Notes under the pieces: generated by a model
What the model was told of the DNA's origin: nothing
What the model saw: only the letters and a program-made list of their open reading frames with translations
The model's database searches: none
NCBI GenBank assembly: GCA_051294905.1
Contig: CM119372.1
Coordinates: 28,646,001 to 28,710,000, forward strand
Direction: 5' to 3'
Length of the DNA: 64,000 bases
From: Botryllus schlosseri
Taxonomy: Eukaryota
Translations under genes and position numbers: made by a program
Part shown: one piece after another, positions 4,457-36,112 of the stretch
Position numbering within the stretch: position 1 is the stretch's first letter
How the letters are laid out: each line of letters opens with the position of its first letter

Positions 4457-5054
4457 GTCTAGTATGTGACGAGATAGCGTGGTTGTTCAACTGTGTGGCC
4501 TATTTTATCCCGCCCACGGCCTTTACGGAATTTGACAGTGGCCCGCGACCCGTTTTGAGTTGGCAACCCCTGGTATAAGCGGTGTGTTACAAAAGCCAGG
4601 AAGTGTTCCATGAGTAGTTAGAGAAATGTGCGGAAGGTGCCCATTCGCGATTTATAAAGAACAAACAAACATTATCAAGATAATAAACAGTGTAAGAATT
4701 AGCTCATTCTCAGTTTTGCAGCAATACTCGAGGGGAATTCCCTTCTGACTGTGCGGCAATAGGGGGGACTGAGAGAAAACGAACAAAGAATCTGGATTGA
4801 CCTTTGTACTGGAGTCATTCTACTTGTACTTTTCCACTCCTTACCTCGCTTGATCTCTGGACACGAGACTTGTGTATTGAGTATTTATTATATTTTCCCT
4901 CGAATAACAATGGATCGGCTTTTAATTTCAATGGTATGCACGCCGACGATACGCTCGGCTGGGCAAAGCGACGTCCACAGCCTGTGTCATACTGGACTCG
5001 TAACAACCTCGCTCGACCTCTGGTCAAGGACATGAAATTACAGCTGACTCCGGT

Positions 5055-5400
5055 CATACGCGACGGGGCTTGGTAATAGTTGCCTGACGACATATCGTCC
5101 TGACCTATCGTTTTGTGGTCCAATTTCGTGACGTGTCTTGGGAATAATTCCCCGTCAAACCCCCTGGCTGACTTGTCGTCCCGTGGTTGACTCGATTTCA
5201 TGTACGGTGGGGCATGGGAATAATTGCCGGTGCTGACTTCGGTCGTGTACGACGGGGCTTGACCATAGTTGCCGGCCCTGACCTGTCATTCCGTGGTCCA
5301 ATTTCGTGGCTCGGGAACAATAGAGCGTCAAGCTGGTTGACTTGTCGTTCCGCGATTGATTCAATTTCGTGTACGGTGGGTCATAATTACCGGTCGTGAC
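5055..5400 (+). repeat. Subterminal degenerate tandem repeat (~60-65 bp units) of the Polinton-like termini
   Basis: Recurring (A)ATTTCGTG, GGGGCTTGG.AATA.TTGCC and GACTTGTCGT motifs; shorter version in the inner element at ~9425-9600; mirrored at both right ends. Confidence 0.7.
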
Positions 5401-6077
5401 GTCAGTATAGTTTCTTCTGATCCATGAGATCCTGGTGCGTGTTTTAGGTGTCCATACGTTCGGCTATGTAAAGTGACGCTTGTGGTCTGTGTCTTGTGTA
5501 CTGTTGTACTTGAACCCTTTTTTACTTTGTTATCGACCCAGACAGTAACGAGAAACGATCTGTTACGATTATAAATATGTATACCATTTCGAGTCATATC
5601 GAGAATGAGAATGAATGTCGTAGTAGAAATGTGTATTAGGCGACCCGACATAGATTAACTTAAATAAATTAGCATTATAAATACAATAAGTAATTGAGCA
5701 AATAGCTGATTCTCAATTTTGCTCGCATCAACATGTTAACCCCTGGTATTACGTACCTAGTAATCGGCGCAAGCAACAAATGTGGCTGTTCCATACCTAT
5801 ACCTCGTTCTAGCGTATTCATAAGGACAGACAGTCCCGAGTAAAACAATGTATTTATGATGGGTTCTTTTTACTGCTTCACGGTTGGTCAAGCGTAATCA
5901 TCCCGGTGTCTGCAAATGATATTCAATTTACCACGGGATATTAATTTTGTATGCTGTACATGATATACAACTTGAATCGAACTGTTGGCGAACTAATGCT
6001 TTGCCCGTCTGTAACATACACATATCGATCACGAGCTCACCACGCACTTGCAGTTCGAGGGCGACTCATTTCGCTGC

Positions 6078-6730
6078 AGACAATCAGTTGTGTTCGCGTG
6101 TATCGTAACATATCCTCAACACTTGTTATGGCAACACCTCCACGCATATTTACAATATCATACTAAGGAACTATTGCTTCGGCAGCCACGCCCTATCGCT
6201 CGAAGTCGACAAATTTCGCTACAGACAGTCAGTTGTGTTCACGTATGTGTCGTAAATATATCCTCAACACATGCTATGCCAATACCTCCAAGCATATTTG
6301 CATCATACTTAGGGTTCTGGTTTAAATCAGGCTGATTTAAATCATCACGTGTCGACAATCGATCGAAGCCCGTCAACTGGTATTTTGAAAGCTCCCGGTA
6401 TGGTGTATTATTGTGTATGGATTGTTGCGGTATTAGAATTGTGGTTACGGCTCGTTGGCGGTGCGAGGATCAGGTTTATAGTATACTATAACTACTTAGC
6501 TCGGATATTATACGACGCGCTGCTATCGGTGCTTTGTCCAAGACCTAATTCACGATAATCAATCTCGCTGTCGAAAATGACATGCGGCCGCGTAGACTGC
6601 ATAGCGCCATTTTGTTTTGTGATCCATCCTGCTGTGCCGAGGATCGAAACATATCCTCAACACATGTTATGCCAACACCTCCAAGCATATTTGCAGCATC
6701 ATACTACGGATATATTGACTCGGCAGAGTG
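6078..6730 (+). repeat. ~144-bp degenerate tandem repeat within the arms
   Basis: Unit ACAATCAGTTGTGTTCGCGTGT..CGTAACATATCCTCAACAC..GTTATGCCAACACCTCC..GCATATTT at ~6080, ~6224, ~6648 (partial); also ~10237, ~10381, ~12440, ~12565 and all mirror positions. Confidence 0.8.
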
Positions 6731-7950
6731 TTACCGTCAGAGAATTGCTGTGTCACGCCTTCGGGCCTTGTATTTTCCGCTCGGTAACTGCGAGTATGAT
6801 GTTATTTCAATTGTCCGCGAAACGAATCGGGGTAGCTCGCTTCATCGGGGCGGACTGACCTTATCTGGCTGAAACGCGCTCGGTGGTGCAATAATGGGAA
6901 TGAATTGTGACAGATCATACCTGATACGATCTATAGCCTGAGGTGAGGTGTAAAGTAGAGGGGGAGATTTCGAAATCGGAATACACTGCGACTATAGGGT
7001 TGCTAAATCAAAGTCCAAAAAATCCGGCTGGCTCGTAAAGTCCTGTTATTTCCATATGTTGTGAGGGTAAAATATAGCATAAATCCGACTCTCAGGGCCA
7101 TTTGGCCGCATCCAGACTGGCTTCGCTGAAAACTGATGAAATCTGCCCCGGGTCCGGAGATGTTTCGTGACCTCCTCCGTCCAGACAAGATTGTTCTGCT
7201 GTAATATAGGTGTCGTTGTATAATAATTTACGTACAAGGAGACTTGGTATCGACCAGACATGGGGTAATCGTGATTAGTAATCGTAATCGATTACGACGA
7301 TTACAGCATTTCCAAGTAATCGTAATCGCAATCGATTACATTCGACAAAATCCCGAAGTAAGCGTAATCGTAATCGACTACTTCCCATATTTAATCGATT
7401 TCTCTGTGAAAGAACGATTACTTTTTTATTTTTGCAAGTTATATGACATAAAGGTCATAAACTGTACATTCGTGAACAAGGAAGAGATATTATACCAGGC
7501 TCGTGACAGCACAAACGTCTGATTTTCAAACGCCACAGCTCATTATTACGTCAGAAGCAGCCTATTAGCTTTGCGCATCATTGCGTAAGAAGTATCCACG
7601 CTAAATAGATATTCGATGTACATACGTCGCACATTATAGTGTCATTGTATGAACAACTGTCGTGCTATATATCAGGTTATCAACACGTTCCACACGCCAC
7701 CACCTCGCAGCAGGATAATTTATCTCCGCCCTGCCTAGTTTAAAATATAGTAACTTATGGTTGATGTTCGGTTATGCTTATGCTCAGTTAGACGCAATTT
7801 GACGGTAGCTGCTTGGCGAGCAGTAGGCCTATCTAGTACGTACGTCGTACGTACATCAAGATTTGAAATTTTGTACTCGTCAAATAAAACATTGCGATTT
7901 CCACAACGAAGCAGTCAAGATCAACAGCTGGTGATATATATATATATATA

Positions 7951-7982
7951 CAGGGATATCTAGAAACTTCTAGATATCCCTG
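7951..7982. repeat. 32-bp perfect hairpin in a TA microsatellite
   Basis: CAGGGATATCTAGAA-AC-TTCTAGATATCCCTG flanked by TA on both sides. Confidence 0.85.
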
Positions 7983-8324
7983 TACATATATATAAATACC
8001 GCGCCGTTTCTCGTAACGGCAGCTTGAGGTACAATATCTGTATTAAGTTGAAGGCAGAATTGTGTGTTCGCTTCGTCTTATTCTCGTATGACTCTCCTTG
8101 AAACGGGCGCCAATCTTTACTCAACATTGGGACCTGCCGCCATAGTCATGGGCCTAAATATCATGTTAGCATGGGCTGTAGCTGGAATTAGGACTAAAAC
8201 AGCAGTTCGTCCCCCATATGGTGGTAATCGGAGGTTGAAGACTGAATTACGTCAATAATTACATTGTATTACTATTGATTTTTAATCCTCTATCAGCTCC
8301 CGATGGTCAGATTCACCTGTAAGA

Positions 8325-8600
8325 GTTAGTTTGTTTGAGGTAATCTTGGTGTTTGTCCACTACAACGGTCAGTTACACCAGGCCGATTTTCTTCATTTTT
8401 GATTCCGTATCTGCCGACTTGTAGCACGGCCCACTTCTAGGCTTATTGTAAGACACCGCTTACGCGGATGAGTCGGCGAGGAGGAGCCTAGATAAACCTC
8501 CAACACTTAGAAAGGATTTCTGAAGTCGACCTCGGTCGGACTCGAGCCGGCATACAATGGCGTTGCAGCCGTGGATTATACCACTGCGCTATCTCGCCAC
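8325..8600 (-). mobile_element. tRNA-derived SINE, near full length
   Basis: Reverse complement shows GTGGCGAGATAGCGCAGTGG (A box) and GGCTCGAGTCC (B box), shared body and AAAC-type tail. Confidence 0.85.
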
Positions 8601-9128
8601 AGAATTAGGCTATCTACATGTAGAGCTGGGACACGTAATTCATAACCTCTGTTATCTTGTTATAATTACTTTAGTTTATGTTGTTAATTCGTGACCTCCG
8701 ATTTGTTATATAATCAAACGATATTGTAGTGGCTCAAGCGTAGCAGACTAGAAAATAAACTGTCGTGAGACGCACAGACAAATTGTCATGTCTTTATATC
8801 TGACTGCATGTCTAGCAACTCAAGTTGTTAATTAACAGGGTCAGTGGCCACATTAACTACAAAAGGACTTGAAAACATTTTCATCATGGGGAAAAAGCAT
8901 TCATTCCGTCAATGCGGCCGTTGAACTTGACAATCAAGTCAAATGATTCAATGGTTTGATGGTCAGATAGCTTTGTAAAACGTGTTGCAACACCACCTGC
9001 ACTTAATTAAGTCTAATGATGAGCAGACTTAAATTTGAGTGACGATCCAAACGCATTTGAGTGTGAGCATACTTTTTGACGTGAGTTGAGTAACGAAATC
9101 GTTGCTGAGTAGAGAATCGCTACTCGAC

Positions 9129-12100
9129 AGTAGTATATAGTTTGGGCGATCGACGCCCATTCGCGATTTATAATAAACAAACAAAGATTATCAATATAAT
9201 AATTAATTAAAGAATTACCTCATTCTCAGTTTTGCAGCAATACTCAAGGGGAATTCCCTTCTGACTGTGCGGCAATTAAAAAAGGGGGATTGACGCTAGA
9301 GAGAAAACGAACAAAGAATCTCGATTGACCTTTGGAACTTTGGTTAGACATGAGACTTGAGTACTTCTACTTGTACTTTTCCACTCGCCTCCAGATTTAC
9401 CTCGCTTGACCTCTGGACACGAGACCTGGGCTTGGTAATAGTTGCCTCCCGACAAATCGCCCTGGCCTATCGTTTTGTGGTCCAATTTCGTGACGGGGCT
9501 TTGGGAATAATTGCCTATCAAACCACCCTGGTTGACTTGTCGTTTCGCGATTGACTCGATTTCGTGGGGGCATAGGAATAATTGCCGGTCGTGACGTCAA
9601 TAAAGTTTTCTCCTGGTCGGTGAGATCCTGGTGCGTGTTTTAGGTGTCTATACGTTCGGCTGTGCATAGTGACGCATGTAGTCTGTTCCATACTGTCGTA
9701 CTTGCTCTTGCTTTGTTGTCGACTTAAATAGTAAGGAGAATTGATCTGTTCTGGATATAAATATGTGTGTCATTTTGAGTCATATCGAGAACCAGAATGT
9801 CGTGTATTAGAAATAGGTATTAGGCGCCCCCGACATAGATTAACTTGAATAAAGTACCATTTAGAATATAATAAGTAATTAAAGAAATAGCTCATTCTCA
9901 ATTTGACTCGCATCAACGTGTTAATTTCCGATATTGTAGTAATTGGTGCAAGCAAAAACTGCTGTTCCACACCTTTACCGCTTTCTAGCGTATTAGAACA
10001 GACAGTCCCAACCAAACAATGTGATGGGTTCTTTTACTGCTTCACGTCTGGTCAAGCGTAATCATGCCGGTGTCTGTAAATGATGTGTAATTTCCCGCGG
10101 TATATTATTTTTGTATGCTGTACATGATGTACAACTTCAATCGATCAGTTGTCGAACTAATACTTTACCGGTATGTACGATCGATCACGAGCTCACCACG
10201 CACTTGTCGTTCGAGGGCGACTCATTTCGCTATAGGCAATCAGTTGTGTTCGCGTGTACCGTAATATATCCTCAACACTTGTTATGCCAACACCTCCAAG
10301 CATATTTACAATATCATGCTAAGGAACTATTGCTTCGGCAGCCACGCACTGTCGTTCGAATTCGACTAATTTCGCTGTAGACAATCAGTTGTGCTCGTGT
10401 GTGTCGTAACATATCCTCATCAACACATGTTATGCCAACACCGCCGAGCATATTTGCAGCATCATACTACGGATATATTGAACCGGCGAAGTATTACCGT
10501 CAGAGAATTGCTGCGCCACACCTTCGAGCCTCGCTTTCCCGCTCGGTAACTGCGAGTACGATGTCAGATTCAATTGTCCAGTGACGAATCGGGGTAGCTC
10601 GCTTCTTCGGGGTGGACAGACCTTATTTGGCTGAAACGCGCTCGGTGGTGCAATAATGGGAATGAATTGTGACAGATCATACCTGATACGATCTATAGCC
10701 TGATGTGAGGCGTAAAGTAGAGTGGGAGATTTCGAAATCGGAATCCACTGCGACTATAGGATTGCAAAATCAAAGTCCAAAAAATCCGACTGGCCCGTAA
10801 AGTCCTGGTATTTCCATGTATTAGGCTGGTAAAATGTAACATAAATCCAACTCTCAAAGACACTTGGCCGCATCCAGTCCGGGTTTAACCAAAACTGATG
10901 AAATCTGCGCCGGGTCCGGAAACGAATCGTGACCACCCCCGTCCAGACAAAATAGTTCTGCTGTAAGGGGAGTGTCGTTGTACATTAATTTGCGTACAGC
11001 GAGACTTTGTATCGACTCATTGACGGACTTCTGTTTGTATCGCGTTTGGCTTAGAATCCCAATTCTATATAGTGCGGCCCGCGAATGGATTCAAATGTTG
11101 AATGCGGCCCGCGAGCTCAAAACTTTGCCCACCCCTGATGTATATTGTACCACTTGAATCGATCTGTTGGCGAACTAATGCTTTGCCCGTCTGTAACATA
11201 CACATATCGATCACGAGCTCACCACGCACTTGCCGTTCGAGAGCGACTGATTTCGCTATAGACAATCAGTTCAGTGTTGCCAATTTAGCGATTTTCGCGC
11301 TAGATCTAGCGATTTTTGAAAAGGTATTTAGCGATTATTTAGCGCTTTTTACCGAAAATAACTAATAAAGATCGGTTCTGGCCGACGACTATGGCGACTC
11401 ATCTGCCACCAGAGTGCGGACTCCAATGATATGTAATGAAATTAATGATGGATTACTAACGTACGGATAGATACGCAACTCCTGGCGGTTACGCATGGGC
11501 AAACAGTGTCTCTTCTTGCTGTGTAATCTAAAAGTAGCATAATTGACAGTGCTACATCTGGCGACCTGAGCGCTGCAATTTAATATGATTGGCCTTGATC
11601 GAAAGCTAGTGTCGCAGTGATTTCGAAGATACAAAATGAAATCTCGTCAGGACAATGGAACCATGCACCCCGAAACAGCCCTCGGAGTCTGAAAACCAGC
11701 ATTGCTTCAATAATGGCACCGCCGCAACACAATGGACATAACAATGACCAATTTCGTCCAGCGATTGTTCTGATCAATGTCGATTTTCAGACTCTTGGGG
11801 CTACTTTGAAGTCGTTGCATTGTCTTTACAAGAATTTAATTCGTATTGTCGGAATCAGTGTGACACTGGCGTTTAGGACCAGATTCATTAAATTTCTTAC
11901 TCCGGGTTGGTCCTCTACTTTTAGTGGCTGGCAAACCCGGTTCAAGTCGTGTTGTATCGGGTCAAGTCGCATGTTGCGTACAAGTGTGTCAAGTCGCATG
12001 TCGTGTTCAAGTACTCCAACTCAGTTTCGAGAAGTCAAGCGCATTTCCACGGTACATCGCATCACTATTCACGGACGCATGGAGCAAGGCACGCTTATAG

Positions 12101-15100
12101 AGTGAGCGGTTATGCCTGCAAACCTGGTCAGTGGTCACGTATAGCGATCATTGCGCAAAGCGATCCGCTCTACCGAAACGCACTGCACGTTTTGTTCCGC
12201 TTAGAGATGAATATTACGTATTATGAACTAGAAATATGATAAGTGACTTTGGCCCCCAGGCGAGTAAAATACAGCTGAGAAGAGTGTATTGATATTATGG
12301 TTCAATTTAACACGTTTAGCAATTAATGTAGATCTAGCGCTATTTTGTAGCGCTTTTTTCTCAATATTTAGCAACATCTAGCGATTTTTGACACCAGTTT
12401 TAGCGATTTTCTTCCATCCGGAGTTGGCAACACTGAATCAGTTGTGTTCGCGTGTACCGTAACGTATCCTCAACACTTGTTATGCCAACACCAATATCAT
12501 ACTAAGGATATATTGCTTCGGCAGCCACGCACTGTCGTTCGAATTCGACTAATTTCGCTGCTGACAATCAGTTGTGCTCACGCGTGCCGTAAAATATCCT
12601 CAACAAATGTTATGTCATATTTGCAGCATCATACTATGGACGTATTGACTCGGCGGAGTGTTACCGTGAGAGAAATGCTGTTTGAGCCCCTCGTCCTAGC
12701 CTTGGATTTACCGTTTCGAAAAATTCCACCAGAAGAAGCTGTGATCGAGTGTCACAATCAATGTCAGCCACGCTCCATCAACCTGTTGTTTTGACAAAAC
12801 CAGTACGTATACGCCGGAGATGAGCATTGATTAGGATTTAGAAAAAACGTATTTGTGAAATTTTTCTGGATTAGGTTGAATTGAGTTTTGAGATTGATTT
12901 ACCATATCGTACGGGCAACTACTACCGAGACCCGTCGTGACGAAATCGGATTAATCAGTCATGGAACGACAAGTTAGGGCTAACCGCTGATATTCCTAGT
13001 TTATTCTTGAAAGCTCTATAGATTACTGGTTAGCTGTATGTTGTGGGCGATTGACAACAGTTAGTTGTCGCTGTTATACAATTTACACTTTGTGTTATAC
13101 ATTCCTTGTTACCACCGCGAACTAGGAGGTCAATCACGACGACGGGCAACTACTCCCAATTGGCGGAATACTGTTTGATTCATCTGTATAATCAGGTTTA
13201 GCACCACAAGAAGAATATAAGTAGTTTATGATTGAATGAAATCTATCAATCAAACAACGATAATAACTATATAGATCTCGTTCGTATTACTATGAGAGCT
13301 AATCGATCACGTCCACACAATATTATTACGTAGCATTCATTTGGTGGGGATGTTGTTGTTAGTATTGTAACATGGTGATCGGCTACTATGACCTTTACAC
13401 CAGTTCTAAAAGGGTAAGGAATTGGTTAGTGTTACAGCTGTCTGACGGTGGGGTATTCGACAAAATTGATATGTTTTACTACGGAAGCTATGATCACACG
13501 GACGGGCTCTCATCACTTATCGTACGAATGCTTGTAATCTCGATGTAGTGTGATGCACACGAATCAGCTGTGATCAGTCGAGTGTGACACGATCGAAGTC
13601 ACTATTTACTGTTTGAAATAACTCGTATATTCCGTTCAAGAAATGTCCCTCATTTGTCCAAATATCCTCCTTTTTGTCAAATTGTCTTCCTTTTTTCATC
13701 TTAAAATATCTAAAAAGACTACGAATGGCACTAAATGATGACCTAGTTTACGAGAGATGGGTATTTCGGGAGTCAAGTCAGGGGACAAAATGAGCTTTTT
13801 TAGTCAACACCATGAAATTTGATGTATAAACATACAAATCATTCGTCCGCTATAGTAACTTTTTGCAGCTCGTGGAAAGTGTCCTCCTTTCGGGGCTTAT
13901 GGTAACCCTATATTTTACCAGCTTTTAGTCTCGGACTTGAACATCGAAGTTTGCACATAATTTCACATTACATTCCCTATGACAAGCATAGGCTATTACG
14001 GTTATGGGACCTGTGCTCTCAAACATGTATTGATGAATAGCGAAAGCGACCACAAGCTTTCATTACATGAAAAAAAACGAGCTCACTAGCCCGTCCATGT
14101 TGGCATGTACACACCAATGGCCATGTCCATGATCTGAAGTTTGCACATAATTTCACATTGCATTCCCATGACTTAGCACAGACTATTACGTGGGTATGGA
14201 GGCTGTGCTTTTCAAACATGTATCGAGGAATACCGAAAGCGACTCAAGCTACCATTACACGAAAAATCGAGCACACTCGTTCCTCCCTCTCGGGGTATAC
14301 CCACCTTCGTTTCGTACAGACAAATGTTTCCATGTTGCAGCGACAATAGCGGGGAGGGTGGTAGATCATTATCACAATCAGTACCTTGGGATGAGTGTGA
14401 AATCGACATCGTCCGTTAAGCGACTGAAGCTAGTCGCCACTACAATCACTCTCTGCGTAGTGCGTAAACGCGACGTACAAAGCGCTGCTGGGTATACGAA
14501 ACTACGGATTCTAGCCAAAGCGAGGTTATCGAGATAGCTGTAGCGATTCACAGCACATGCTAAATCTCCTTGAAATGGGAGTACAAAATGTATCGCTTTG
14601 AAATACTCAAGTAGAAGTAGTTGTTAAAGAGTAATTCGCACCGTAAAATTGCAACTGTTTTGGAGTGCTAATGTCACACAATTGCTATATTGATCACTCG
14701 CTTATGTGTAGAAAGCAGAAATTGACCCCTGGGTTGTACGATCTCGTGGCCTTGACAAACGTTCTATAGTTCAAAAGTCACTGTCATGTTGGGCTTTGAT
14801 TGCTGTTGTACTCTTGTTAGCGTCGATATTCATTGGTACGTGTTTTCATGGTCTAAAATGTTGGTTATTATAGAGTGTTTTCGTAAAAGGTTGGGAGCCA
14901 CTGATTTAGGCCTTGATGGGTTCAACCAAATACACGTGTAACACATCCTATTCCTGGGCCGTAACCGATCCTTTACCACACCTTCTATACGATAAACGTC
15001 CTTTTTATCCAGAGGTAAGCCGACGACATACGGGAAATGCAGGCGCTGACGTGCTATTTTGTTATTCTCTCCGCGTAACATGAAAGAAGGTATTGAGGTA

Positions 15101-23934: not shown

Positions 23935-26900
23935 CCTTTGGCGGAATTCTGTTTGGTTCGTCTGTACAGGTGTTATTAGTGCGACCAGATTTGGCACCTC
24001 GAGGAGGATATTGGTAAAAACCGTATCACACAACGAGGACAATAACTTTACCGGTCAACAATGTACGTAAATCAGCTGTGTTCAATCGAGCGTGACACAA
24101 TCGATGTCAGCCATCAATCTGCGGCTTGATAAAACCCGCGTTTTCGGGTTGACAGCAACACAATGCGATCCATTCGATATCACTATCGACCCTCCTATTT
24201 TAATATAGGGTTACCATGAGGCCTCCTTTAGGGGAGCATATGTCCTCCATTTCCCAGATATGTCACCCAATTCACCCAAATGTACTCTCTTTCTGTCAGT
24301 TTGTCCTCCTTGTTAGCTCAACATCTCCAAAAAAGCACCACGAGTAACGCAAAATGTGGGCCTAGATTACAAAAGTCGGGTACGTGGCCAAATCGGAAAA
24401 ATGACGCTATGATGGTATTGTGCAGGCTATTACGTGGATACGGGGGCCTGTGTAAACATGTGAATAGTAAAAGCGCTCCAAACTACCGTGAAAAAAGATC
24501 GAGCGCATTAGACCATGTCGGGGCCACCTTAGTACAGTCAAATGATCCCATGTCGTATCGAGAATAGCCGGGGCGGTGGTGGTACATCATTCTCACAAGA
24601 TGTACTTTGGAATGCGTGTGAAATCGTCTTCGTCCGCTACTCGACTAAAGCAGAATATAGCTTTGAAGTACTCAAGTAGCTTTAAAGGAAATGTCGTGAA
24701 ATCGCTTTCTATCCTAATGATAAAGAGTAGGCCCCCCATAAATCTATCGAGCCAAAATGTAGTTTCAAAGCAATCCAGTAATTTGTAAATCTTACGGGTT
24801 GAACGGTGTGTTCATTGACTAGAGAGAAGGAGACACGACGGTGCCTGTATAACAAGGCTGTTCTCAAACCGACATTGTCTTCGTTATTATCGGCGAGATA
24901 TGGCTTTGCAGTGACATTGCGGTCGGTAAAATACATTGATTAAATACGATTTATCCCTCGTATATGGGGATCAATGGGCGAATAATGTATCGATTCAGCA
25001 ATTCGGCATGCCAAGTACTTAATTTTCTCCGGCCCGCCGACCGAAGGAGTTGCCCGCCCCCCTTGTATAACACATATGTAGATGATACAATAGCGACAGC
25101 TAGCGGTTGTCAATCATCCATAAAAATACTAACCAGTAATACAGCCCTCAAGGAAAACAACAATCCGGGGAGATACGTCAAGTGTATTTCAGATACATCG
25201 TCTGTAGACCTCCAATTGCGGAGAACACTGGAGCAGCTGAAGCACTGTGTTCTGTCTAGGTCACCGAGATAAAGCTTGTTTTGCCAACTCGCCGACCGTC
25301 CGTGGTATGGGATAGCTGGGTCATTTCTCAAAGGTTCAGTACTCTCCGTATTTTGAGGTTATTGCACAATCTATCTCTAATATGCTGTAATATAGACAGG
25401 TCCAGACTTGTCTATTCACTTCCGTAGACTGACCTTTATAACACATTTTACACAATTAAATACACATGTTCAGTTTATTTGAAGTAATAACGGGCAAGCA
25501 CATTAACTAATCGTCCAGAACAAGGTGTAGAGCTTCTTTCAGATCTTGGCATACTTTCTTGATATCAGAATCTTTTTTTTGATTTGCGATGTAAAAGCAA
25601 TACCAGCTTCGCATACATGAGCATATGATTGCGTATAAACCGATATTGAAGTCTTCTGAGAGCATCTTCATTATTCTCCAGTCTACACAATATTATTTTC
25701 CTCTTAGTACGTTATGTCTCTCAATCCAACAGAACAGTTGAATTGCTATTCGAAGGTATCTGATACAGACAACTGTAAACTAATTCTTTAAGTTTGTTCA
25801 TCGTAGCGTAACGACCATTTTTACGAATCCATAACTGTATCATTTGATATCGTTGCTCAGTTAAGGTATAGCAATCCATGTATTGGCATTCGGCAATTTC
25901 ATTGTCAGATAGCTCAAGTTTTTCACGTGCAAACCTATACCAGTTCATCGGGTCAATCCGATCCATTATGACGTATATATCACTAGCAGTAATCTTGGAC
26001 ATATTCGATCTATAGTGTACAGCGAATAATCATGTAATAAATATTACACGTTATATATTGCCTTGCACTCGGTTCAACTACAATAACAAATAAGGCGATC
26101 AACTTACGCAATAATGACGTAATCATATCTCAGCGTTACTGAAACCAAGCAAAGCCGCTCTCGTAATAACTAGAGTAATCAACTATACGCAATCATAATG
26201 ACGTAATCATTACTGCACATGCTTGAACTGCAATACGCAATCATAATGAAGAATATATACGTATATATCAATTTCTGCAACTTTTTAATTTTGCTCGCAC
26301 TGTACACGATTTCATGTAGATAAATGTTTTGATTATTAGGCACCCTTCCTTCACAAAAAATACGCATCATTTATGAGAGTAGGAATCTAAGCGTTGGCCA
26401 TTACCACGCCAAGAGGTAAGAAGACATATGAAGTTTGGGCCATCATGGGCCTCATAGAAGAGTGCCAAAAAGATCGTCAGCGAGAAAACATGGGTCGAAA
26501 AGGATTGCCCTTATGTTGACCGTAAACTTCGATATAAATGTATTTGTATGGGTGTCTAAAGTGCTGGCACCGAATAATTATGTCGTGGTAATCTGGACCC
26601 CACAGGGCAACTGACATCCCACCCCGAATTATTATTTAACAGTGAAGAAATACCAATTTTGAATCGTGCGCTTCTTTTAGTTTAGTAGTCTGTGTATAGG
26701 CGAGTTCAATATCTTTTGATTACATACCGCACATGGGAAGTCGGACTGAGAGGATACAAAATTTATAGCAATATACACGCAATTATCAATATTATTGACC
26801 TAATCAATCATTAATTATACAGTCATTTCACCAGGTCCACGTGGTCGCATCTGAATGGAGACCGGATAGGTCAAAAGTGCTACATTCGGTCAAAGTGGCG

Positions 26901-27592
26901 AACATACCGCCTGGTTATCAAGTGTTTTTATGTATGATCGACCCCCACTGTCTAGCGAGACGAGCAGGATTTTGGTGTCTGATTATTAATGTCGTAAGAG
27001 TGTGGTAAATCCATTTACAAACTACTTTACACATTTCAAAATCCCAACACCCGAAAAGTAAGTAGCTAAAACGGTTGAAGCGGAGGTAGTCTGAAACACA
27101 ACGACTCATATAGCACAGATGGACAAATCCTAATCGAGTACATCGGATAGAGTTGCATCCTTGAAATCGTTATTTCCTCAACAAATCGATACAAGAATGG
27201 ATCTGCATGGGAATAAACATGAATATGTTCTGATGACACTCGTTATGGAAAGCTAAATTCGCCTGCCCCACATCCCCAACAGAACATATTGACAATTAAT
27301 ATCAGCCATATACTACAGAAATACCCATTTACTCGAATGGTACCATGTCTGAAATACTGTAGTGTAGGCGAATCAGCGTCTACTGATCCTGACAGTCACC
27401 GTTTAAACAGGTTTTTGCCGGGTCAACTGTGATCGGACACGGTTCATCCGCTACTTGCAGACTTATACGCGCGGGGGGTTGAAAAAAAAATGGCTCGGAT
27501 GCTATGTCAGCTCAGGGCGACAATTCGAAGTTTTAAACGATACGGTTGGTACGTAAAGCCTCGTTATTCCCGCGTATTGTGAGGGTAAAACC
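23935..27592 (+). repeat. Outer element left inverted arm, part 2
   Basis: Reverse complement of 29718-33374 (ORF 24964..25272+ mirrors 32038..32346-; 26918..27109- mirrors 30201..30392+). Match ends at GAGGGTAAAACC / GGTTTTACCCTC. Confidence 0.95.
25721..26002 (-). CDS. Death-domain-only protein (93 aa)
   Basis: ATG-initiated ORF with the death-domain pattern W..FAR..L.LSDNEI...L.EQ.YQM...W..KNG..AT...L...; TATA box ~50 bp upstream. Confidence 0.8.
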   Translation of the reverse strand: MSKITASDIYVIMDRIDPMNWYRFAREKLELSDNEIAECQYMDCYTLTEQRYQMIQLWIRKNGRYATMNKLKELVYSCLYQIPSNSNSTVLLD

Positions 27593-28234
27593 GATGCTAA
27601 AATAAGTCGTCGGAAGGGTATACCGAAAGCCTCTTTGCACTGCGGGTGAACTTATCGCATAGCATTTCACAGCTCTGCGGCGTAATTTAACTGTCTAGCG
27701 CTGTGGACGGTCCATTTTGTCTGCTAATTGGGGGCCATAAACGACCGAGTGAAACAAATAGTTTGGGGTATATGCGGATATGATTAGGAAACAACACGCT
27801 GAATGACTTGGGAATCTCAACTCGACAAAGGATCGTCGCGACGGGGGACCTGCAAAAACGTCCCAGACACCCTGAATCCCGCTAATGTAGGCGCTGACAG
27901 AGCATAATTTTCCCTGCTACGGGTGTAATCTAGATAAAGCATGATTTTTTCCTATATGTCTGTAATCTATATAAAGCATAGTGCTCCCTAGATACCAGGC
28001 GTGGGGGATCACGAATCACCAAGTGTTTTTATACATTGAGAAATGATCGAGCTATTTTTATACCCGAGGTAGTCATTCAGAGACATGCAGGCTTATTCGT
28101 ATAGACTCTCTATAGTGTAGCATCTATCTGATTCGGGGATAAGTAAATGCTTTGTCCACGCTCAAACTGAGGATGCTTTGAATTTGTATCTTACTCATGT
28201 TATTATTCACCCTCCAGGAAATATTTATAGTACG

Positions 28235-28741
28235 ATGGAGTCTAATAAATGCCGTATTTGTGCGCGGGAATTCACAAGAAAATGCAACCTCAAAAGTCAT
28301 TTACTATGGCACACTGGTGTTAAAGAACATGAATGCTTGATATGCGGACGATGGTTTCTTGCCAAACAGAACCTACATGCCCATTTGGCTGTACACTCGG
28401 GGGTGAAACCGTACGATTGTGAAGTATGTGGTCGTTTTTTTGCCCGAAAATACACCATGGAAGTTCATTTGGCCACACATACTGGCGTAGAAAGATTCGA
28501 GTGTGGGGTGTGTGGTAAGCTTCTGTCGGGGAAGAATGGGCTGAAAAAACACCTAGAAACACACTTTGGAATTGGAAAATACTCGTGTCAGGTGTGTGGG
28601 AGACTGTTTCCTCACCAATGCGGGTTAGAAACTCACCTCCAGGCTCCCGTGGGACTGAGAAAATATCCATGCGGTGTTTGCGGTAAAGCTTTTGGTTCGC
28701 AAGCAAATCTTCACAGACACGAGACTACTCCCTTTGTGTGA
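28235..28741 (+). CDS. Tandem C2H2 (Kruppel-type) zinc-finger protein, 168 aa from first ATG
   Basis: Six CxxC units with TGVKEHE/SGVKPYD/TGVERFE linkers; fingers 1-4 have both His, fingers 5-6 lack the last His. A pyrimidine-rich CCCTCCAG at ~28210-28217 suggests an upstream intron, so the true start could lie in another exon. Confidence 0.9.
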   Translation: MESNKCRICAREFTRKCNLKSHLLWHTGVKEHECLICGRWFLAKQNLHAHLAVHSGVKPYDCEVCGRFFARKYTMEVHLATHTGVERFECGVCGKLLSGKNGLKKHLETHFGIGKYSCQVCGRLFPHQCGLETHLQAPVGLRKYPCGVCGKAFGSQANLHRHETTPFV

Positions 28742-28769
28742 GCCGATCGTATTTCAATATGAGTGTACC

Positions 28770-28812
28770 AATAAATATTTTTTTCGCGTCTGTATAATTC
28801 TGTGTTGTTTGT
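28770..28812 (+). terminator. Polyadenylation signal of the zinc-finger gene
   Basis: AATAAA at 28770-28775, ~30 bp after the stop, followed by T- and GT-rich downstream sequence (TGTGTTGTTTGT). Confidence 0.6.
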
Positions 28813-31060
28813 CCGAGGCTTCTATGTTGGTGTTTTAATCATTTAGTGGGGGCAGAGATAAAAGAGTCGATATTACAATAGACACGACTCGTCCTAGTCG
28901 AGTATTAGAAACCACCATGAAAGCAGGTCAACTTTATGTGACAGTTTTGATAACACCAATACTACAAAATACCATTTATCGTCTGACGGTGAAAGATGGG
29001 GATTTGCGAATAGGGGCTGGTTGCAATACCACACGAGTAAATACACAGAGAGAGTCTTTATTTTAAACAAACCAAAATACGTAACAAACGGCAGTGATGG
29101 TGGTACAGAAAATATACTTTGCACAGTATTCGGTACTAGATGGGAATGATCGACAAGACCGTGAAGGTCATCTAGTCTGATCACACAGTGTAAAGAGGCT
29201 TTCGGTATACCCTTCCGAAACGTATAGTTACGGGGCATGGACGGGCGCCCGGGAGACATACCTTATTAGTAATTTTACCGTACGACTTATTTTAGCATCG
29301 GGTGATTTTAATACCCTTTCGAAGATGTCGTGTTTTATTTGACGAAGTCAGAGGTTTGTTTCACACGGTGTGATTACGAGTGATAAATTGTAAACATAAT
29401 AGCACACAGCAGCTGACGGGTCGCGGTGCGGGACAATAAAGACGGTTACCGTGCGAGACGTACAAGCCACCATAACTACACAGAGGTCGTCAGCAATGCC
29501 GCTACTTTTTTCCGGGTACTCGATTCTGTCTACTCGCACTGCACCAAGTTATCAATGTGGCTAGCCTTCTTTAGGAAGCCACTTACTTTTACTAGTTTAT
29601 AAAAGTTTAGCGACCCCCTCCGTATCATGCGACGATAGCTGGAGCTGTTAGGCTTGACTAGAGTTGACCACGATTCGGGCACGCATTTTCATCGGCTCGA
29701 TGTGGAACTGTCTTAAAGGTTTTACCCTCACAATACGCGGGAATAACGAGGCTTTACGTACCAACCGTATCGTTTAAAACTTCGAATTGTCGCCCTGAGC
29801 TGACATAGCATCCGAGCCATTTTTTTTTCAACCCCCCGCGCGTATAAGTCTGCAAGTAGCGGATGAACCGTGTCCGATCACAGTTGACCCGGCAAAAACC
29901 TGTTTAAACGGTGACTGTCAGGATCAGTAGACGCTGATTCGCCTACACTACAGTATTTCAGACATGGTACCATTCGAGTAAATGGGTATTTCTGTAGTAT
30001 ATGGCTGATATTAATTGTCAATATGTTCTGTTGGGGATGTGGGGCAGGCGAATTTAGCTTTCCATAACGAGTGTCATCAGAACATATTCATGTTTATTCC
30101 CATGCAGATCCATTCTTGTATCGATTTGTTGAGGAAATAACGATTTCAAGGATGCAACTCTATCCGATGTACTCGATTAGGATTTGTCCATCTGTGCTAT
30201 ATGAGTCGTTGTGTTTCAGACTACCTCCGCTTCAACCGTTTTAGCTACTTACTTTTCGGGTGTTGGGATTTTGAAATGTGTAAAGTAGTTTGTAAATGGA
30301 TTTACCACACTCTTACGACATTAATAATCAGACACCAAAATCCTGCTCGTCTCGCTAGACAGTGGGGGTCGATCATACATAAAAACACTTGATAACCAGG
30401 CGGTATGTTCGCCACTTTGACCGAATGTAGCACTTTTGACCTATCCGGTCTCCATTCAGATGCGACCACGTGGACCTGGTGAAATGACTGTATAATTAAT
30501 GATTGATTAGGTCAATAATATTGATAATTGCGTGTATATTGCTATAAATTTTGTATCCTCTCAGTCCGACTTCCCATGTGCGGTATGTAATCAAAAGATA
30601 TTGAACTCGCCTATACACAGACTACTAAACTAAAAGAAGCGCACGATTCAAAATTGGTATTTCTTCACTGTTAAATAATAATTCGGGGTGGGATGTCAGT
30701 TGCCCTGTGGGGTCCAGATTACCACGACATAATTATTCGGTGCCAGCACTTTAGACACCCATACAAATACATTTATATCGAAGTTTACGGTCAACATAAG
30801 GGCAATCCTTTTCGACCCATGTTTTCTCGCTGACGATCTTTTTGGCACTCTTCTATGAGGCCCATGATGGCCCAAACTTCATATGTCTTCTTACCTCTTG
30901 GCGTGGTAATGGCCAACGCTTAGATTCCTACTCTCATAAATGATGCGTATTTTTTGTGAAGGAAGGGTGCCTAATAATCAAAACATTTATCTACATGAAA
31001 TCGTGTACAGTGCGAGCAAAATTAAAAAGTTGCAGAAATTGATATATACGTATATATTCT

Positions 31061-31260
31061 TCATTATGATTGCGTATTGCAGTTCAAGCATGTGCAGTAA
31101 TGATTACGTCATTATGATTGCGTATAGTTGATTACTCTAGTTATTACGAGAGCGGCTTTGCTTGGTTTCAGTAACGCTGAGATATGATTACGTCATTATT
31201 GCGTAAGTTGATCGCCTTATTTGTTATTGTAGTTGAACCGAGTGCAAGGCAATATATAAC
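31061..31260 (+). promoter_or_regulatory. Putative promoter of the death-domain gene (mirror at ~26050-26249 on minus strand)
   Basis: TGATTACGTCATTAT twice (31101-31115, 31185-31199), ATTGCGTA three times, TATATAA at 31253-31259, ATG at 31308. Confidence 0.5.
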
Positions 31261-31307
31261 GTGTAATATTTATTACATGATTATTCGCTGTACACTATAG
31301 ATCGAAT

Positions 31308-31589
31308 ATGTCCAAGATTACTGCTAGTGATATATACGTCATAATGGATCGGATTGACCCGATGAACTAGTATAGGTTTGCACGTGAAAAACTTGAGCTA
31401 TCTGACAATGAAATTGCCGAATGCCAATACATGGATTGCTATACCTTAACTGAGCAACGATATCAAATGATACAGTTATGGATTCGTAAAAATGGTCGTT
31501 ACGCTACGATGAACAAACTTAAAGAATTAGTTTACAGTTGTCTGTATCAGATACCTTCGAATAGCAATTCAACTGTTCTGTTGGATTGA
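31308..31589 (+). pseudogene. Mirror copy of death-domain gene with nonsense mutation W21*
   Basis: ATG at 31308; codon 21 (31368-31370) is TAG where the left-arm copy has TGG; otherwise matches. Confidence 0.85.
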
Positions 31590-34500
31590 GAGACATAACG
31601 TACTAAGAGGAAAATAATATTGTGTAGACTGGAGAATAATGAAGATGCTCTCAGAAGACTTCAATATCGGTTTATACGCAATCATATGCTCATGTATGCG
31701 AAGCTGGTATTGCTTTTACATCGCAAATCAAAAAAAAGATTCTGATATCAAGAAAGTATGCCAAGATCTGAAAGAAGCTCTACACCTTGTTCTGGACGAT
31801 TAGTTAATGTGCTTGCCCGTTATTACTTCAAATAAACTGAACATGTGTATTTAATTGTGTAAAATGTGTTATAAAGGTCAGTCTACGGAAGTGAATAGAC
31901 AAGTCTGGACCTGTCTATATTACAGCATATTAGAGATAGATTGTGCAATAACCTCAAAATACGGAGAGTACTGAACCTTTGAGAAATGACCCAGCTATCC
32001 CATACCACGGACGGTCGGCGAGTTGGCAAAACAAGCTTTATCTCGGTGACCTAGACAGAACACAGTGCTTCAGCTGCTCCAGTGTTCTCCGCAATTGGTG
32101 GTCTACAGACGATGTATCTGAAATACACTTGACGTATCTCCCCGGATTGTTGTTTTCCTTGAGGGCTGTATTACTGGTTAGTATTTTTATGGATGATTGA
32201 CAACCGCTAGCTGTCGCTATTGTATCATCTACATATGTGTTATACAAGGGGGGCGGGCAACTCCTTCGGTCGGCGGGCCGGAGAAAATTAAGTACTTGGC
32301 ATGCCGAATTGCTGAATCGATACATTATTCGCCCATTGATCCCCATATACGAGGGATAAATCGTATTTAATCAATGTATTTTACCGACCGCAATGTCACT
32401 GCAAAGCCATATCTCGCCGATAATAACGAAGACAATGTCGGTTTGAGAACAGCCTTGTTATACAGGCACCGTCGTGTCTCCTTCTCTCTAGTCAATGAAC
32501 ACACCGTTCAACCCGTAAGATTTACAAATTACTGGATTGCTTTGAAACTACATTTTGGCTCGATAGATTTATGGGGGGCCTACTCTTTATCATTAGGATA
32601 GAAAGCGATTTCACGACATTTCTTTTAAAGCTACTTGAGTACTTCAAAGCTATATTCTGCTTTAGTCGAGTAGCGGACGAAGACGATTTCACACGCATTC
32701 CAAAGTACATCTTGTGAGAATGATGTACCACCACCGCCCCGGCTATTCTCGATACGACATGGGATCATTTGACTGTACTAAGGTGGCCCCGACATGGTCT
32801 AATGCGCTCGATCTTTTTTCACGGTAGTTTGGAGCGCTTTTACTATTCACATGTTTACACAGGCCCCGTATCCACGTAATAGCCTGCACAATACCATCAT
32901 AGCGTCATTTTTCCGATTTGGCCACGTACCCGACTTTTGTAATCTAGGCCCACATTTTGCGTTACTCGTGGTGCTTTTTTGGAGATGTTGAGCTAACAAG
33001 GAGGACAAACTGACAGAAAGAGAGTACATTTGGGTGAATTGGGTGACATATCTGGGAAATGGAGGACATATGCTCCCCTAAAGGAGGCCTCATGGTAACC
33101 CTATATTAAAATAGGAGGGTCGATAGTGATATCGAATGGATCGCATTGTGTTGCTGTCAACCCGAAAACGCGGGTTTTATCAAGCCGCAGATTGATGGCT
33201 GACATCGATTGTGTCACGCTCGATTGAACACAGCTGATTTACGTACATTGTTGACCGGTAAAGTTATTGTCCTCGTTGTGTGATACGGTTTTTACCAATA
33301 TCCTCCTCGAGGTGCCAAATCTGGTCGCACTAATAACACCTGTACAGACGAACCAAACAGAATTCCGCCAAAGGGTCGATACCAAGTCTCCTTGTACGTA
33401 AATTATTATACAACGACACCTATATTACAGCAGAACAATCTTGTCTGGACGGAGGAGGTCACGAAACATCTTCGGACCCGGGGCAGATTTCATCAGTTTT
33501 CAGCGAAGCCAGTCTGGATGCGGCCAAATGGCCCTGAGAGTCGGATTTATGCTATATTTTACCCTCACAACATATGGAAATAACAGGACTTTACGAGCCA
33601 GCCGGATTTTTTGGACTTTGATTTAGCAACCCTATAGTCGCAGTGGATTCCGATTTCGAAATCTCCCCCTCTACTTTACACCTCACCTCAGGCTATAGAT
33701 CGTATCAGGTATGATCTGTCACAATTCATTCCCATTATTGCACCACCGAGCGCGTTTCAGCCAAATAAGGTCAGTCCACCCCGATGAAGCGAGCTACCCC
33801 GATTCGTTTCGCGGACAATTGAAATAACATCGTACTCGCAGTTACCGAGCGGAAAATACAAGGCCCGAAGGCGTGACACAGCAATTCTCTGACGGTAACA
33901 CTCTGCCGAGTCAATATATCCGTAGTATGATGCTGCAAATATGCTTGGAGGTGTTGGCATAACATGTGTTGAGGATATGTTTCGATCCTCGGCACAGCAG
34001 GATGGATCACAAAACAAAATGGCGCTATGCAGTCTACGCGGCCGCATGTCATTTTCGACAGCGAGATTGATTATCGTGAATTAGGTCTTGGACAAAGCAC
34101 CGATAGCAGCGCGTCGTATAATATCCGAGCTAAGTAGTTATAGTATACTATAAACCTGATCCTCGCACCGCCAACGAGCCGTAACCACAATTCTAATACC
34201 GCAACAATCCATACACAATAATACACCATACCGGGAGCTTTCAAAATACCAGTTGACGGGCTTCGATCGATTGTCGACACGTGATGATTTAAATCAGCCT
34301 GATTTAAACCAGAACCCTAAGTATGATGCAAATATGCTTGGAGGTATTGGCATAGCATGTGTTGAGGATATATTTACGACACATACGTGAACACAACTGA
34401 CTGTCTGTAGCGAAATTTGTCGACTTCGAGCGATAGGGCGTGGCTGCCGAAGCAATAGTTCCTTAGTATGATATTGTAAATATGCGTGGAGGTGTTGCCA

Positions 34501-36029
34501 TAACAAGTGTTGAGGATATGTTACGATACACGCGAACACAACTGATTGTCTGCAGCGAAATGAGTCGCCCTCGAACGGCAAGTGCGTGGTGAGCTCGTGA
34601 TCGATATGTGTATGTTACAGACGGGCAAAGCATTAGTTCGCCAACAGTTCGATTCAAGTTGTATATCATGTACAGCATACAAAATTAATATCCCGTGGTA
34701 AATTGAATATCATTTGCAGACACCGGGATGATTACGCTTGACCAACCGTGAAGCAGTAAAAAGAACCCATCATAAATACATTGTTTTACTCGGGACTGTC
34801 TGTCCTTATGAATACGCTAGAACGAGGTATAGGTATTGAACAGCCACATTTGTTGCTTGCACCGATTACTAGGTACGTAATACCAGGGGTTAACATGTTG
34901 ATGCGAGCAAAATTGAGAATCAGCTATTTGCTCAATTACTTATTGTATTTATAATGCTAATTTATTTAAGTTAATCTATGTCGGGTCGCCTAATACACAT
35001 TTCTACTACGACATTCATTCTCATTCTCGATATGACTCGAAATGGTATACATATTTATAATCGTAACAGATCGTTTCTCGTTACTGTCTGGGTCGATAAC
35101 AAAGTAAAAAAGGGTTCAAGTACAACAGTACACAAGACACAGACCACAAGCGTCACTTTACATAGCCGAACGTATGGACACCTAAAACACGCACCAGGAT
35201 CTCATGGATCAGAAGAAACTATACTGACGTCACGACCGGTAATTATGACCCACCGTACACGAAATTGAATCAACCGCGGAACGACAAGTCAACCAGCTTG
35301 ACGCTCTATTGTTCCCGAGCCACGAAATTGGACCACGGAATGACAGGTCAGGGCAGGCAACTATGGTCAAGCCCCGTCGTACACGACCGAAGTCAGCACC
35401 GGCAATTATTCCCATGCCCCACCGTACATGAAATCGAGTCAACCACGGGACGACAAGTCAGCCAGGGGGTTTGACGGGGAATTATTCCCAAGACACGTCA
35501 CGAAATTGGACCACAAAACGATAGGTCAGGACGATATGTCGTCAGGCAACTATTACCAAGCCCCGTCGCGTATGACCGGAGTCAGCTGTAATTTCATGTC
35601 CTTGGCCAGAGGTCGAGCGAGGTTGTTACGAGTCCAGTATGACACAGGCTGTGGACGTCGCTTTGCCCAGCCGAGCGTATCGTCGGCGTGCATACCATTG
35701 AAATTAAAAGCCGATCCATTGTTATTCGAGGGAAAATATAATAAATACTCAATACACAAGTCTCGTGTCCAGAGATCAAGCGAGGTAAGGAGTGGAAAAG
35801 TACAAGTAGAATGACTCCAGTACAAAGGTCAATCCAGATTCTTTGTTCGTTTTCTCTCAGTCCCCCCTATTGCCGCACAGTCAGAAGGGAATTCCCCTCG
35901 AGTATTGCTGCAAAACTGAGAATGAGCTAATTCTTACACTGTTTATTATCTTGATAATGTTTGTTTGTTCTTTATAAATCGCGAATGGGCACCTTCCGCA
36001 CATTTCTCTAACTACTTCCATGCTACAAG

Positions 36030-36112
36030 TCGACGTTACGGAATCCAAAATAAGAAATATCGGCCTGGTGTAAATGACCATTATAGTTGACAAACACCAT
36101 GATTACCACAAA
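36030..36112 (+). mobile_element. SINE 3' fragment
   Basis: GAAATATCGGCCTGGTGTAAATGACC...ACAAACACCATG matches the SINE body. Confidence 0.65.

Follow-up and report, generated by a model that had tools for sequence, protein, structure and literature searches.

What kind of mobile DNA consists almost entirely of its own inverted arms, and how could such DNA move and keep its two halves alike? The question is raised by a 64,000-nt stretch of contig CM119372.1 of Botryllus schlosseri (hereafter the window; coordinates are window positions unless stated otherwise), in which two foldback elements, A and B, lie one inside the other, each with inverted arms of more than 6 kb. Their closest relatives are Polinton/Maverick elements, a group reportedly described by Kapitonov and Jurka in 2006. 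Taken together, the analyses below make it likely that A and B are members of an abundant family, made up of non-autonomous foldback derivatives of a Polinton/Maverick lineage resident in the genome, and, judged from the sequences, it is highly probable that they are non-autonomous Polinton derivatives moved in trans. A preliminary description of the window had interpreted them as non-autonomous satellites mobilised by a Polinton, an interpretation that is supported by the same target site duplication (TSD) length, the shared ends, a gene-bearing partner and recent copies, from which we infer the mobilisation in trans.

Two nested foldback elements with Polinton ends

Element A (4613-36016) occupies 31,404 bp as found, or 14,724 bp minus its nested insert, and direct reading shows that it begins with AGTAGTTAGAG and ends with CTCTAACTACT, flanked by the 6-bp TSD TCCATG (4607-4612 and 36017-36022). 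Element B (9129-23241; 14,113 bp) begins with AGTAGTATATAG and ends with CTATATACTACT, and is flanked by CTCGAC (9123-9128 and 23242-23247). An inverted-repeat scan of the window pairs 4613-7255 with 33374-36016, 23925-24445 with 32864-33384 and 24443-27592 with 29718-32867, all belonging to A, and 9124-15308 with 17062-23246 (6,185 nt), belonging to B; inverted repeats of 6 kb are beyond chance. The left arm of A (+ strand) is in two parts. Its outer part (4613-7255) holds the terminal inverted repeat (TIR) and left-subterminal DNA that are common to gene-bearing Polintons, together with 145-nt direct subrepeats, and its inner part (23936-27592) mirrors 29718-33373; a loop of 2,125 nt (27593-29717) and an uninterrupted right arm of 6,299 nt (29718-36016, - strand) follow. 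A third element, C, splits the left arm of A at 7255/23926 and itself contains B, so that the nesting order is A > C > B. The left arm of B (9129-15308, + strand, 6,180 nt) is separated by a loop of 1,753 nt (15309-17061) from its mirror, the right arm (17062-23241, - strand).

The arms are near-identical, differing in B by 2 substitutions over 6,180 nt and in A by 14 substitutions and 1 indel over about 6,300 nt (~99.8% identity), and they account for 2 x 6,180 of 14,113 bp in B (87.6%) and, with the nested insert discounted, for 2 x 6,300 of 14,724 bp in A (85.6%). A tandem-repeat finder run over 33 kb returned one 145-nt x 1.9 array and three short arrays. Direct reading agrees with the preliminary description on two related elements with AGTAGT...ACTACT termini, each with its own perfect 6-bp TSD, and the measured arms and loops agree with its estimate of ~6.2-6.3 kb arms making up ~86-88% of each element around a ~2-kb centre. 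The arms fall short of perfect identity, and the same description had overlooked element C, which stands between A and B.

Gene-bearing Polintons with the same ends

If A and B are moved in trans, elements with the same ends and a full gene set might be expected in the same genome. Each genome search scored 35-40 of 313-364 first-look candidates, and the resulting census rests partly on coordinates only. With the terminal 300 bp of A and of B as probes, 40 matches were scored among 313 and 333 candidates, respectively, and these lie mostly in plus/minus pairs 13-22 kb apart. The sequences of seven matched loci were inspected; four are foldbacks and three are gene-bearing elements: they measure 16.4-16.6 kb, their TIRs 342-567 bp, and their long open reading frames (ORFs) form a full set. 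Overall, gene-bearing elements measure 15-16.6 kb and have AGTAGT...ACTACT ends, 6-bp TSDs and TIRs of 0.3-0.6 kb. Twelve other end pairs were examined, one of which has truncated ends; among the 11 readable pairs, nine (one of them the duplicate of the A locus described below) have a perfect 6-bp TSD and two match at 5 of 6 positions.

The polymerase ORF of these elements (1,336-1,381 aa) has full-length homologues with E-values down to 1e-238, and 14 of the 18 best carry PF03175, the protein-primed B-family polymerase (pPolB); when five homologues were re-scanned, PF03175 was recovered in the two that the listing credits with it (E=2e-11 and 2e-12). In the Atlas, the ORF is grouped with DNA_pol_B_2 clusters (0.97). 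A Pfam scan of the ORF itself gave no PF03175 match even at E<=10, and the ORF matched no solved structure by sequence; its identification as pPolB is based on the full-length PF03175-bearing homologues and the Atlas. Further, a 365-aa ORF is an rve integrase (Pfam E=4e-8, above cut-off), a 219-aa ORF is weakly NTPase-like, and a 504-aa ORF resembles double-jelly-roll capsid clusters and is a candidate capsid protein, as a lead only. In the genome-wide polymerase search (35 of 364 candidates scored), 15 full-length matches had 94-100% identity, nine of them free of in-frame stops. The autonomous partner that the preliminary description had predicted from the termini was thus found, with pPolB, rve integrase, a capsid-like ORF, the same ends and 6-bp TSDs, and the count of copies with 6-bp TSDs that it had proposed came out as given above. 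We refer to these gene-bearing elements as helpers.

Among the same 35 scored polymerase candidates, at least three Polinton lineages coexist, at 92-100%, 62-65% and 38-39% identity to the reference, and members of the 38-39% group mostly have open frames of about 1,300 aa. Relatives of the helper polymerase frequently have N-terminal C2H2 zinc fingers where the terminal-protein part would be expected; the polymerase of the helper copy has one degenerate finger left, at residues 345-365.

What the foldbacks keep and what they lack

Comparison with a reference gene-bearing copy separates what A and B have kept from what they have lost. In a tblastn search of its 45 ORFs against 4613-36016, the matches were confined to five ORF-like stretches of the end regions and included no internal ORF, whereas all 45 matched a control gene-bearing copy. 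The polymerase ORF had no match in 4613-36016 at E<=1e-3 and did match the control; the 365-aa rve ORF had none there by tblastn, nor was rve found in the Pfam scans; and the genes for morphogenesis (capsid, ATPase, protease) were likewise missing from A and B as far as the internal ORFs of the reference copy represent them. The Pfam scans covered 102 ORF fragments (55 aa or longer) taken from B, from the loop and right arm of A and from C, and returned two matches, a partial Death domain and a partial BIR domain, both in the A arm; no transposase of any kind was found among these fragments, and none of the 45 fragments of B matched Pfam. By gene content, A and B show none of the coding features of a Polinton/Maverick and are hence non-autonomous, and the earlier statement that they have no replication genes holds for both the helper polymerase and every internal reference ORF.

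What is shared lies at the ends. By blastn, the foldbacks have in common with the reference copy only the TIR and left subterminal pieces from its positions 492-1822, and these are present on both arms; the outer left arm of A, for example, is homologous to positions 494-837, 1134-1216 and 1370-1672. The ends of A match those of the reference copy at 88% over 348 nt, and those of B at 80-81% over 275-278 nt. Since a match limited to the left end occurs on both arms, both arms descend from the left end of the helper.

The preliminary description had also attributed host-type cargo to the elements, and this stands in part. Element B has no recognisable gene, and its loop has neither a Pfam match nor a zinc-finger ORF. 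The Death-domain fragment of A (31371-31586, + strand; PF00531, E=3.4e-7, profile positions 20-71 of 86) and its BIR-domain fragment (31952-32197, + strand; PF00653, E=3.8e-6, profile positions 30-63 of 70) are partial domains common to the family. Both were identified on the right arm; their mirror copies in the left arm, with coordinates computed from the arm pairing, lie on the - strand at about 25724-25939 (Death) and about 25113-25358 (BIR). The zinc-finger ORF in the loop of A, by contrast, is a gene specific to the family, as discussed below.

A large and recently active family

Of the four other foldbacks that were sequenced, one duplicates A, one is 13.7 kb long and has arms of 5.9 kb, one measures 20.7 kb and contains insertions, and one is a near-perfect palindrome of 14,861 bp, whose arms of about 7,400 nt mismatch at 7 positions and enclose a centre of ~38 nt. 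The arms of the foldbacks are mutually homologous at 70-91%, which argues for descent from foldback ancestors rather than formation in place. A 634-nt probe from the B arm returned 336 candidates; the 40 that were scored include at least 14 inverted pairs, with identities of 99, 99, 98, 97% and lower. Other foldbacks contain the inner arm and loop of A at 96-99% identity, together with the Death segment, and the Death segment itself is common (97%) to at least eight other places, several of them in inverted pairs; the inner arm and loop of A are modules of the family and not private cargo. The median span is 14.1 kb for the foldback type (12.9-16.0, n=15, several from coordinates only) and 16.4 kb for the gene-bearing type (15.0-16.6, n=9).

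The exact site into which B inserted can also be read without B. Element C has another copy, on a different contig, that is 100% identical across all 2,551 bp, and a single CTCGAC stands at the exact B insertion point in two other C copies, one 100% and one 98% identical; these represent an exact empty site for B. The foldback family is large, and it is recently active, as follows from relatives that are up to 99% identical and from this empty site. Both the empty CTCGAC site and the active family had been anticipated in the preliminary description.

Two further observations concern individual relatives. On contig C3, at 30408965-30445884 (search coordinates), three direct copies of the B-arm segment with a 12,914-bp period are followed by one inverted copy, an arrangement that resembles a concatemer of foldback halves. 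The 20.7-kb foldback has a 630-aa open frame running through an expanded subterminal repeat array, probably not a gene, and ORFs of 416 and 306 aa in inserted DNA.

How the two arms come to be alike

The contig carries a second copy of A, ~95 kb upstream, which shares the flanks and the TCCATG of the first, is 99.8% identical to it and is free of C and B; this copy measures 14,725 bp, and the C and B insert that it lacks amounts to 16,680 bp. When window positions 1-47000 were compared with the same contig about 95-111 kb upstream, the whole locus was present twice at 99.8% identity, so that the duplication extends at least to window position 47,000; somewhere within 36,100-45,000, the other copy is ~13.7 kb longer, a difference the size of a foldback. 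The duplicate locus may be either a tandem duplication or an uncollapsed second haplotype, and in either case the two copies are descendants of a single A insertion.

This allows a comparison of four arms, the left and right arms of A and of its duplicate. Five substitutions and 1 indel divide the left arms from the right arms in both copies, and these changes are therefore older than the duplication. Twenty-one substitutions are private to one arm, and just 1 substitution and 1 indel are common to both arms of one copy (a gap singleton at column 2642 is an artefact of excising the insert). The comparison fits young age and slow conversion alike; nevertheless, 21 one-arm-private changes against 2 symmetrised ones indicate that conversion in place is weak on this time scale.

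Other observations concern changes that are present on both arms. On both arms of B, the terminal 305 nt match, at 99.3% identity, the right end of one gene-bearing copy, whose own left and right ends are only 76% alike. Compared with its closest sequenced foldback relative, B has 69-92% identity in the first 300 nt, whereas beyond nt 300 the identity in 100-nt windows is 62.9-100%, with 28 of 30 windows at or above 93% and 24 of 30 at 97-100%. From these identities, a terminus has moved between a foldback and a gene-bearing element, in either direction, and in B it is present on both arms. The two arms also stay in step more widely. In the 14 inverted pairs, both arms had the same score in nine cases and nearly the same in five, with scores between elements ranging from 839 to 1,144; in the sequenced foldbacks, arms are 99.7-99.97% alike within an element and 70-91% between elements.

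The border between arm and loop is not fixed either. In a 97-98% relative of A, a stretch of 534 nt from the A loop is present in each of the two orientations, joined at a 33-nt inverted repeat that is part of the loop (loop positions 18-50 vs 1594-1626 in A). Parts of the B loop fall inside the arms of the 14,861-bp full palindrome. As read from these relatives, the arm/loop border shifts and palindromes appear to be re-made. Conversion is unable to extend a palindrome into unique DNA, which switching strands at a short inverted repeat can do; taken with the terminus swapped on both sides, this favours snap-back. The moving borders and the terminus on both arms thus point to template switching during protein-primed replication, and we tentatively regard snap-back template switching during replication as the source of the symmetry, at a confidence just short of even.

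A model for the foldback life cycle

Each foldback keeps the cis-acting helper end on both arms, namely the (AGT)2 terminus, the TIR of 0.3-0.6 kb and part of the left subterminal DNA, and has lost every detectable helper gene. We hypothesize that it may be copied by the protein-primed polymerase of the helper from its two identical ends. During that replication, the palindrome would be made and re-made by snap-back (copy-back) template switching, which would explain why changes, including the swapped 305-bp terminus, are found on both arms. Insertion by the rve integrase of the helper would leave the 6-bp TSD. Foldbacks may in addition be packaged into helper capsids, as suggested by their size (~86% of that of the helper) and by the retained left end; in adenovirus, the packaging signal is at the left end. 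By this analogy, packaging of foldbacks in helper capsids is possible, though we consider it doubtful.

More speculatively, the foldbacks might be satellites in the strict sense, their virus being an endogenous Polinton, and so resemble defective-interfering genomes that are inherited. Such satellites would be copied from two origins, re-symmetrised by snap-back in each round, packaged into capsids by means of a doubled left-end signal and re-integrated by the helper integrase, and one sublineage would have its own sequence-specific zinc-finger protein acting on the element or on the helper. We think this full scheme rather unlikely as a whole. If the scheme is true, Polintons would have their first described satellite system in an animal, and DNA viruses a counterpart of the snap-back genomes that is fixed as a transposon family. 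Polintons/Mavericks stand midway from transposons to viruses, and how they live is not known from direct observation; dependants that have the helper's ends, its left subterminal DNA, nearly its length and halves changing in lock-step are a natural experiment on the cis-elements for replication, integration and possibly packaging. The data also offer a sequence-level handle on the origin and symmetry of giant palindromes in an animal genome.

Several points weigh against this reading or narrow it. The 21 one-arm-private substitutions in A and its duplicate mean that integrated arms drift apart, so young age alone could explain the high arm identity in any single copy. The gene-bearing copy that matches the end of B has 2 in-frame stops in its polymerase and need not be the helper. 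About 5 of the 6.2 kb of each arm match no reference helper ORF and no Pfam family, and simple copy-back does not explain this arm content. The size comparison between foldbacks and helpers includes spans taken from coordinates only.

Alternative explanations

The main rival accepts that the foldbacks are Polinton derivatives and ascribes the identity of their arms to gene conversion within old insertions, where one inverted arm would convert the other in place, as happens in sex-chromosome palindromes and plastid inverted repeats, with no snap-back involved. Long inverted repeats are known substrates for intrachromosomal conversion, the substitution and indel found on both arms of one A duplicate are absent from the other, and one foldback has a TSD matching at 5 of 6 positions yet arms that are 100% identical over 1.8 kb. 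However, one-arm-private substitutions far outnumber symmetrised changes since the A duplication (21 vs 2), conversion needs homology and could neither push a palindrome into unique loop DNA nor yield the full palindrome with a 38-nt loop, and the perfect TSDs in nine of 11 readable pairs argue for insertions much younger than the 9-30% divergence between elements. We therefore regard conversion as a possible account, though not a probable one. An origin outside the Polintons has far less to recommend it. The foldback shape and the subterminal 145-nt repeats do recall Drosophila FB/Galileo-type elements, as these are portrayed in the accessible text of PMC3573991, and the likeness to Polinton ends could in principle be coincidental or due to a captured fragment. 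That another foldback-type DNA transposon superfamily is at work is nonetheless extremely improbable, given 300-650 bp of homology, from the very first base, to both ends of pPolB/integrase-bearing elements, a terminus identity that reaches 99.3% in one case, a TSD of the same 6 bp, and the 102 ORF fragments of A, B and C, which, Death and BIR matches aside, include no transposase.

Alternatively, the host might keep the foldbacks for its own benefit, if read-through transcripts across them gave long double-stranded RNA over Polinton ends and thereby small-RNA silencing of autonomous elements. Maize Mu killer offers a parallel for such silencing, and since both arms hold the helper TIR and left subterminal DNA in inverted orientation, a transcript across the element would form a helper-matching hairpin. 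By contrast, the copies are numerous, diverged and recently inserted, and their TSDs are intact, a picture of selfish spread and not of a conserved host locus, and we consider host retention improbable. Finally, near-perfect palindromes are a known artefact class of long-read data, produced by foldback chimeric reads, and no contig bridging the A junction was listed in independent runs. An assembly artefact is hard to reconcile with dozens of loci on many contigs, each with its own flanks and 6-bp TSD, with the A > C > B nesting with exact TSDs and an exact empty site, with the few real differences that the arms carry, and with a run from an independent study that covers 30 of 30 bins at 97% likeness or more, and we give it next to no credence. 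Foldback derivatives of the resident Polintons remain the reading we prefer.

Comparison with known systems

Judged by their ends and TSDs, A and B are Polinton/Maverick derivatives. In the accessible text of PMC8097293, Mavericks have (AGT)2//(ACT)2 ends, 6-bp TSDs, a mean length of 16.9 kb (range 12.7-24.6 kb) and TIRs of 46-1,447 bp (mean 402). The (AGT)2//(ACT)2 termini and 6-bp TSDs of A and B follow this vertebrate Maverick motif, the foldback length of 14-15 kb falls within the published range, and the terminal 0.3-0.6 kb are homologous to the TIRs of the resident pPolB/integrase-bearing elements. The foldbacks differ in having no pPolB, integrase, ATPase or capsid gene, in inverted repeats of 6.2-7.4 kb that make up about 86-100% of the element, well beyond the TIR lengths given in that text, and in that most of their arm DNA is unrelated to the helper.

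Among published cases of enlarged Polinton ends, the nearest, within the part of the Pannagram preprint that was accessible (10.1101/2025.02.07.637071), is that of butterfly Polintons, whose TIRs of about 2 kb duplicate the hexon and adenain genes and which are still autonomous. As in the foldbacks, their inverted ends go far beyond the usual few hundred bp, with content present twice; here, however, the viral core is entirely gone and the arms are three times longer. Tlr1 elements and transpovirons, which according to the portion available of PMC5499653 are sometimes called non-autonomous Polintons, are likewise Polinton-related linear elements with inverted ends and without the full Polinton gene set, although as presented there they have their own helicase and other genes, form a separate virus-like family and are not palindromes. 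We found no description of foldback or palindromic non-autonomous Polintons in the literature searched, Repbase reports and most subscription journals being outside its reach.

The incomplete-particle genomes of adenovirus include left-end inverted duplications. Snap-back or copy-back defective viral genomes more generally, as far as the accessible text of PMC13506859 describes them, are palindromes that keep one genome end on both sides, have lost coding capacity and depend on a helper polymerase, a dependence that would hold for the foldbacks as well. The one-end origin of such genomes is also found here, in that both arms match, beyond the TIR, only the left end of the reference helper (492-1822), and one foldback is a near-complete palindrome with a 38-nt centre. 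Unlike the snap-back genomes of that account, which are transient infection products, mostly of RNA viruses, the foldbacks are heritable, are integrated with TSDs in many lineages, and have arms of mostly non-viral DNA, some with a zinc-finger gene.

With FB/Galileo foldback transposons, as covered by the available part of PMC3573991, the foldbacks share very long inverted arms, internal subrepeats, a variable loop, structural dynamism between copies and non-coding copies that would be moved in trans, whereas the mobilising enzyme of Galileo belongs to the P superfamily. The foldbacks would accordingly resemble foldback transposons in shape and, by analogy with the genomes treated in the accessible text of PMC13506859, snap-back genomes in origin. 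The arms of A and B are mostly unique sequence and not tandem arrays, the 145-nt x 1.9 array being the one found. FB/Galileo-type foldbacks have TSDs of 7-9 bp, in contrast to the 6 bp of A and B, and arms made up largely of tandem subrepeats.

A zinc-finger gene in the loop

The loop of A contains an ORF of 168 aa with C2H2 zinc fingers (28235-28741, + strand; frame open from 28121; Pfam zf-C2H2 E=2e-22). Full-length copies were found at eight places, A and its duplicate included, all of them between inverted arm segments, and six of the eight have no stop; in the copy of A, two finger histidines are replaced by proline. Five distinct sequences give 10 pairs, and dN/dS is 0.17-0.33 in nine of these and 0.55 in the closest pair, which has 12 differences. 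The pairs are not independent of one another; five were tested, and each had more synonymous than non-synonymous change (p from 3e-7 to 9e-5). On these substitution patterns, the loop ORF of the A type is under purifying selection and is a family-specific gene rather than incidental cargo, and its product is a predicted DNA-binding protein that, we infer, serves the element lineage. With it, a dependant of this kind would have its first assigned gene.

Other zinc-finger loci of the genome match the ORF at no more than 48% identity, and public proteins of 92-294 aa at no more than 45%; a tblastn search of B at E<=10 found no trace of the ORF. An origin from the N-terminal fingers of the related polymerases was considered and rejected, the identity being 27-38% with no specific kinship. 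When about 3% of a single-cell RNA run was mapped, hardly any reads fell on the ORF, where the depth averaged 0-0.31.

Element C, sequencing reads and other repeats

Element C is a TIR transposon of 2,551 bp unrelated to A and B, TAATCG-rich, with ends AGACATGGGG...CCCCATGTCT. In the window its left part is 7256-9128 and its right part 23248-23925, with junctions read on both sides; the left CTCGAC copy next to B belongs to it, and its own 10-bp TSD GGTATCGACC was read at the junctions 7246-7255 and 23926-23935. None of its 11 ORF fragments matches Pfam. A 400-nt probe returned 1,585 first-look candidates at 94-100%, and by these matches C is a very young and very abundant family; a TSD of 9-11 bp would fit Mutator-like elements.

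Runs of several studies hold 34-63% of sampled sequence words from the A loop region, and none of these runs is recorded as RNA. When reads were mapped on 27500-36100, the run of the independent study mentioned above provided the complete bin coverage; the contigs obtained were only short ones of a high-copy family, and none of those listed bridges the A junction at 36016. RNA pile-ups on the same interval, all of them from other copies, occur only near 31518-31804 and at a repeat of ~140 nt in the A loop (~29047-29186). The latter has many genome copies at 91-94% identity and very high contig depth, and is the sole part of 27500-36100 with clear RNA reads, most of which run into unrelated sequence; it is probably a transcribed SINE- or MITE-like insertion in the loop. 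Beyond the foldbacks, window positions 45000-46568 hold an unrelated repeat of ~1.57 kb, with at least 38 copies at 82-91% identity.

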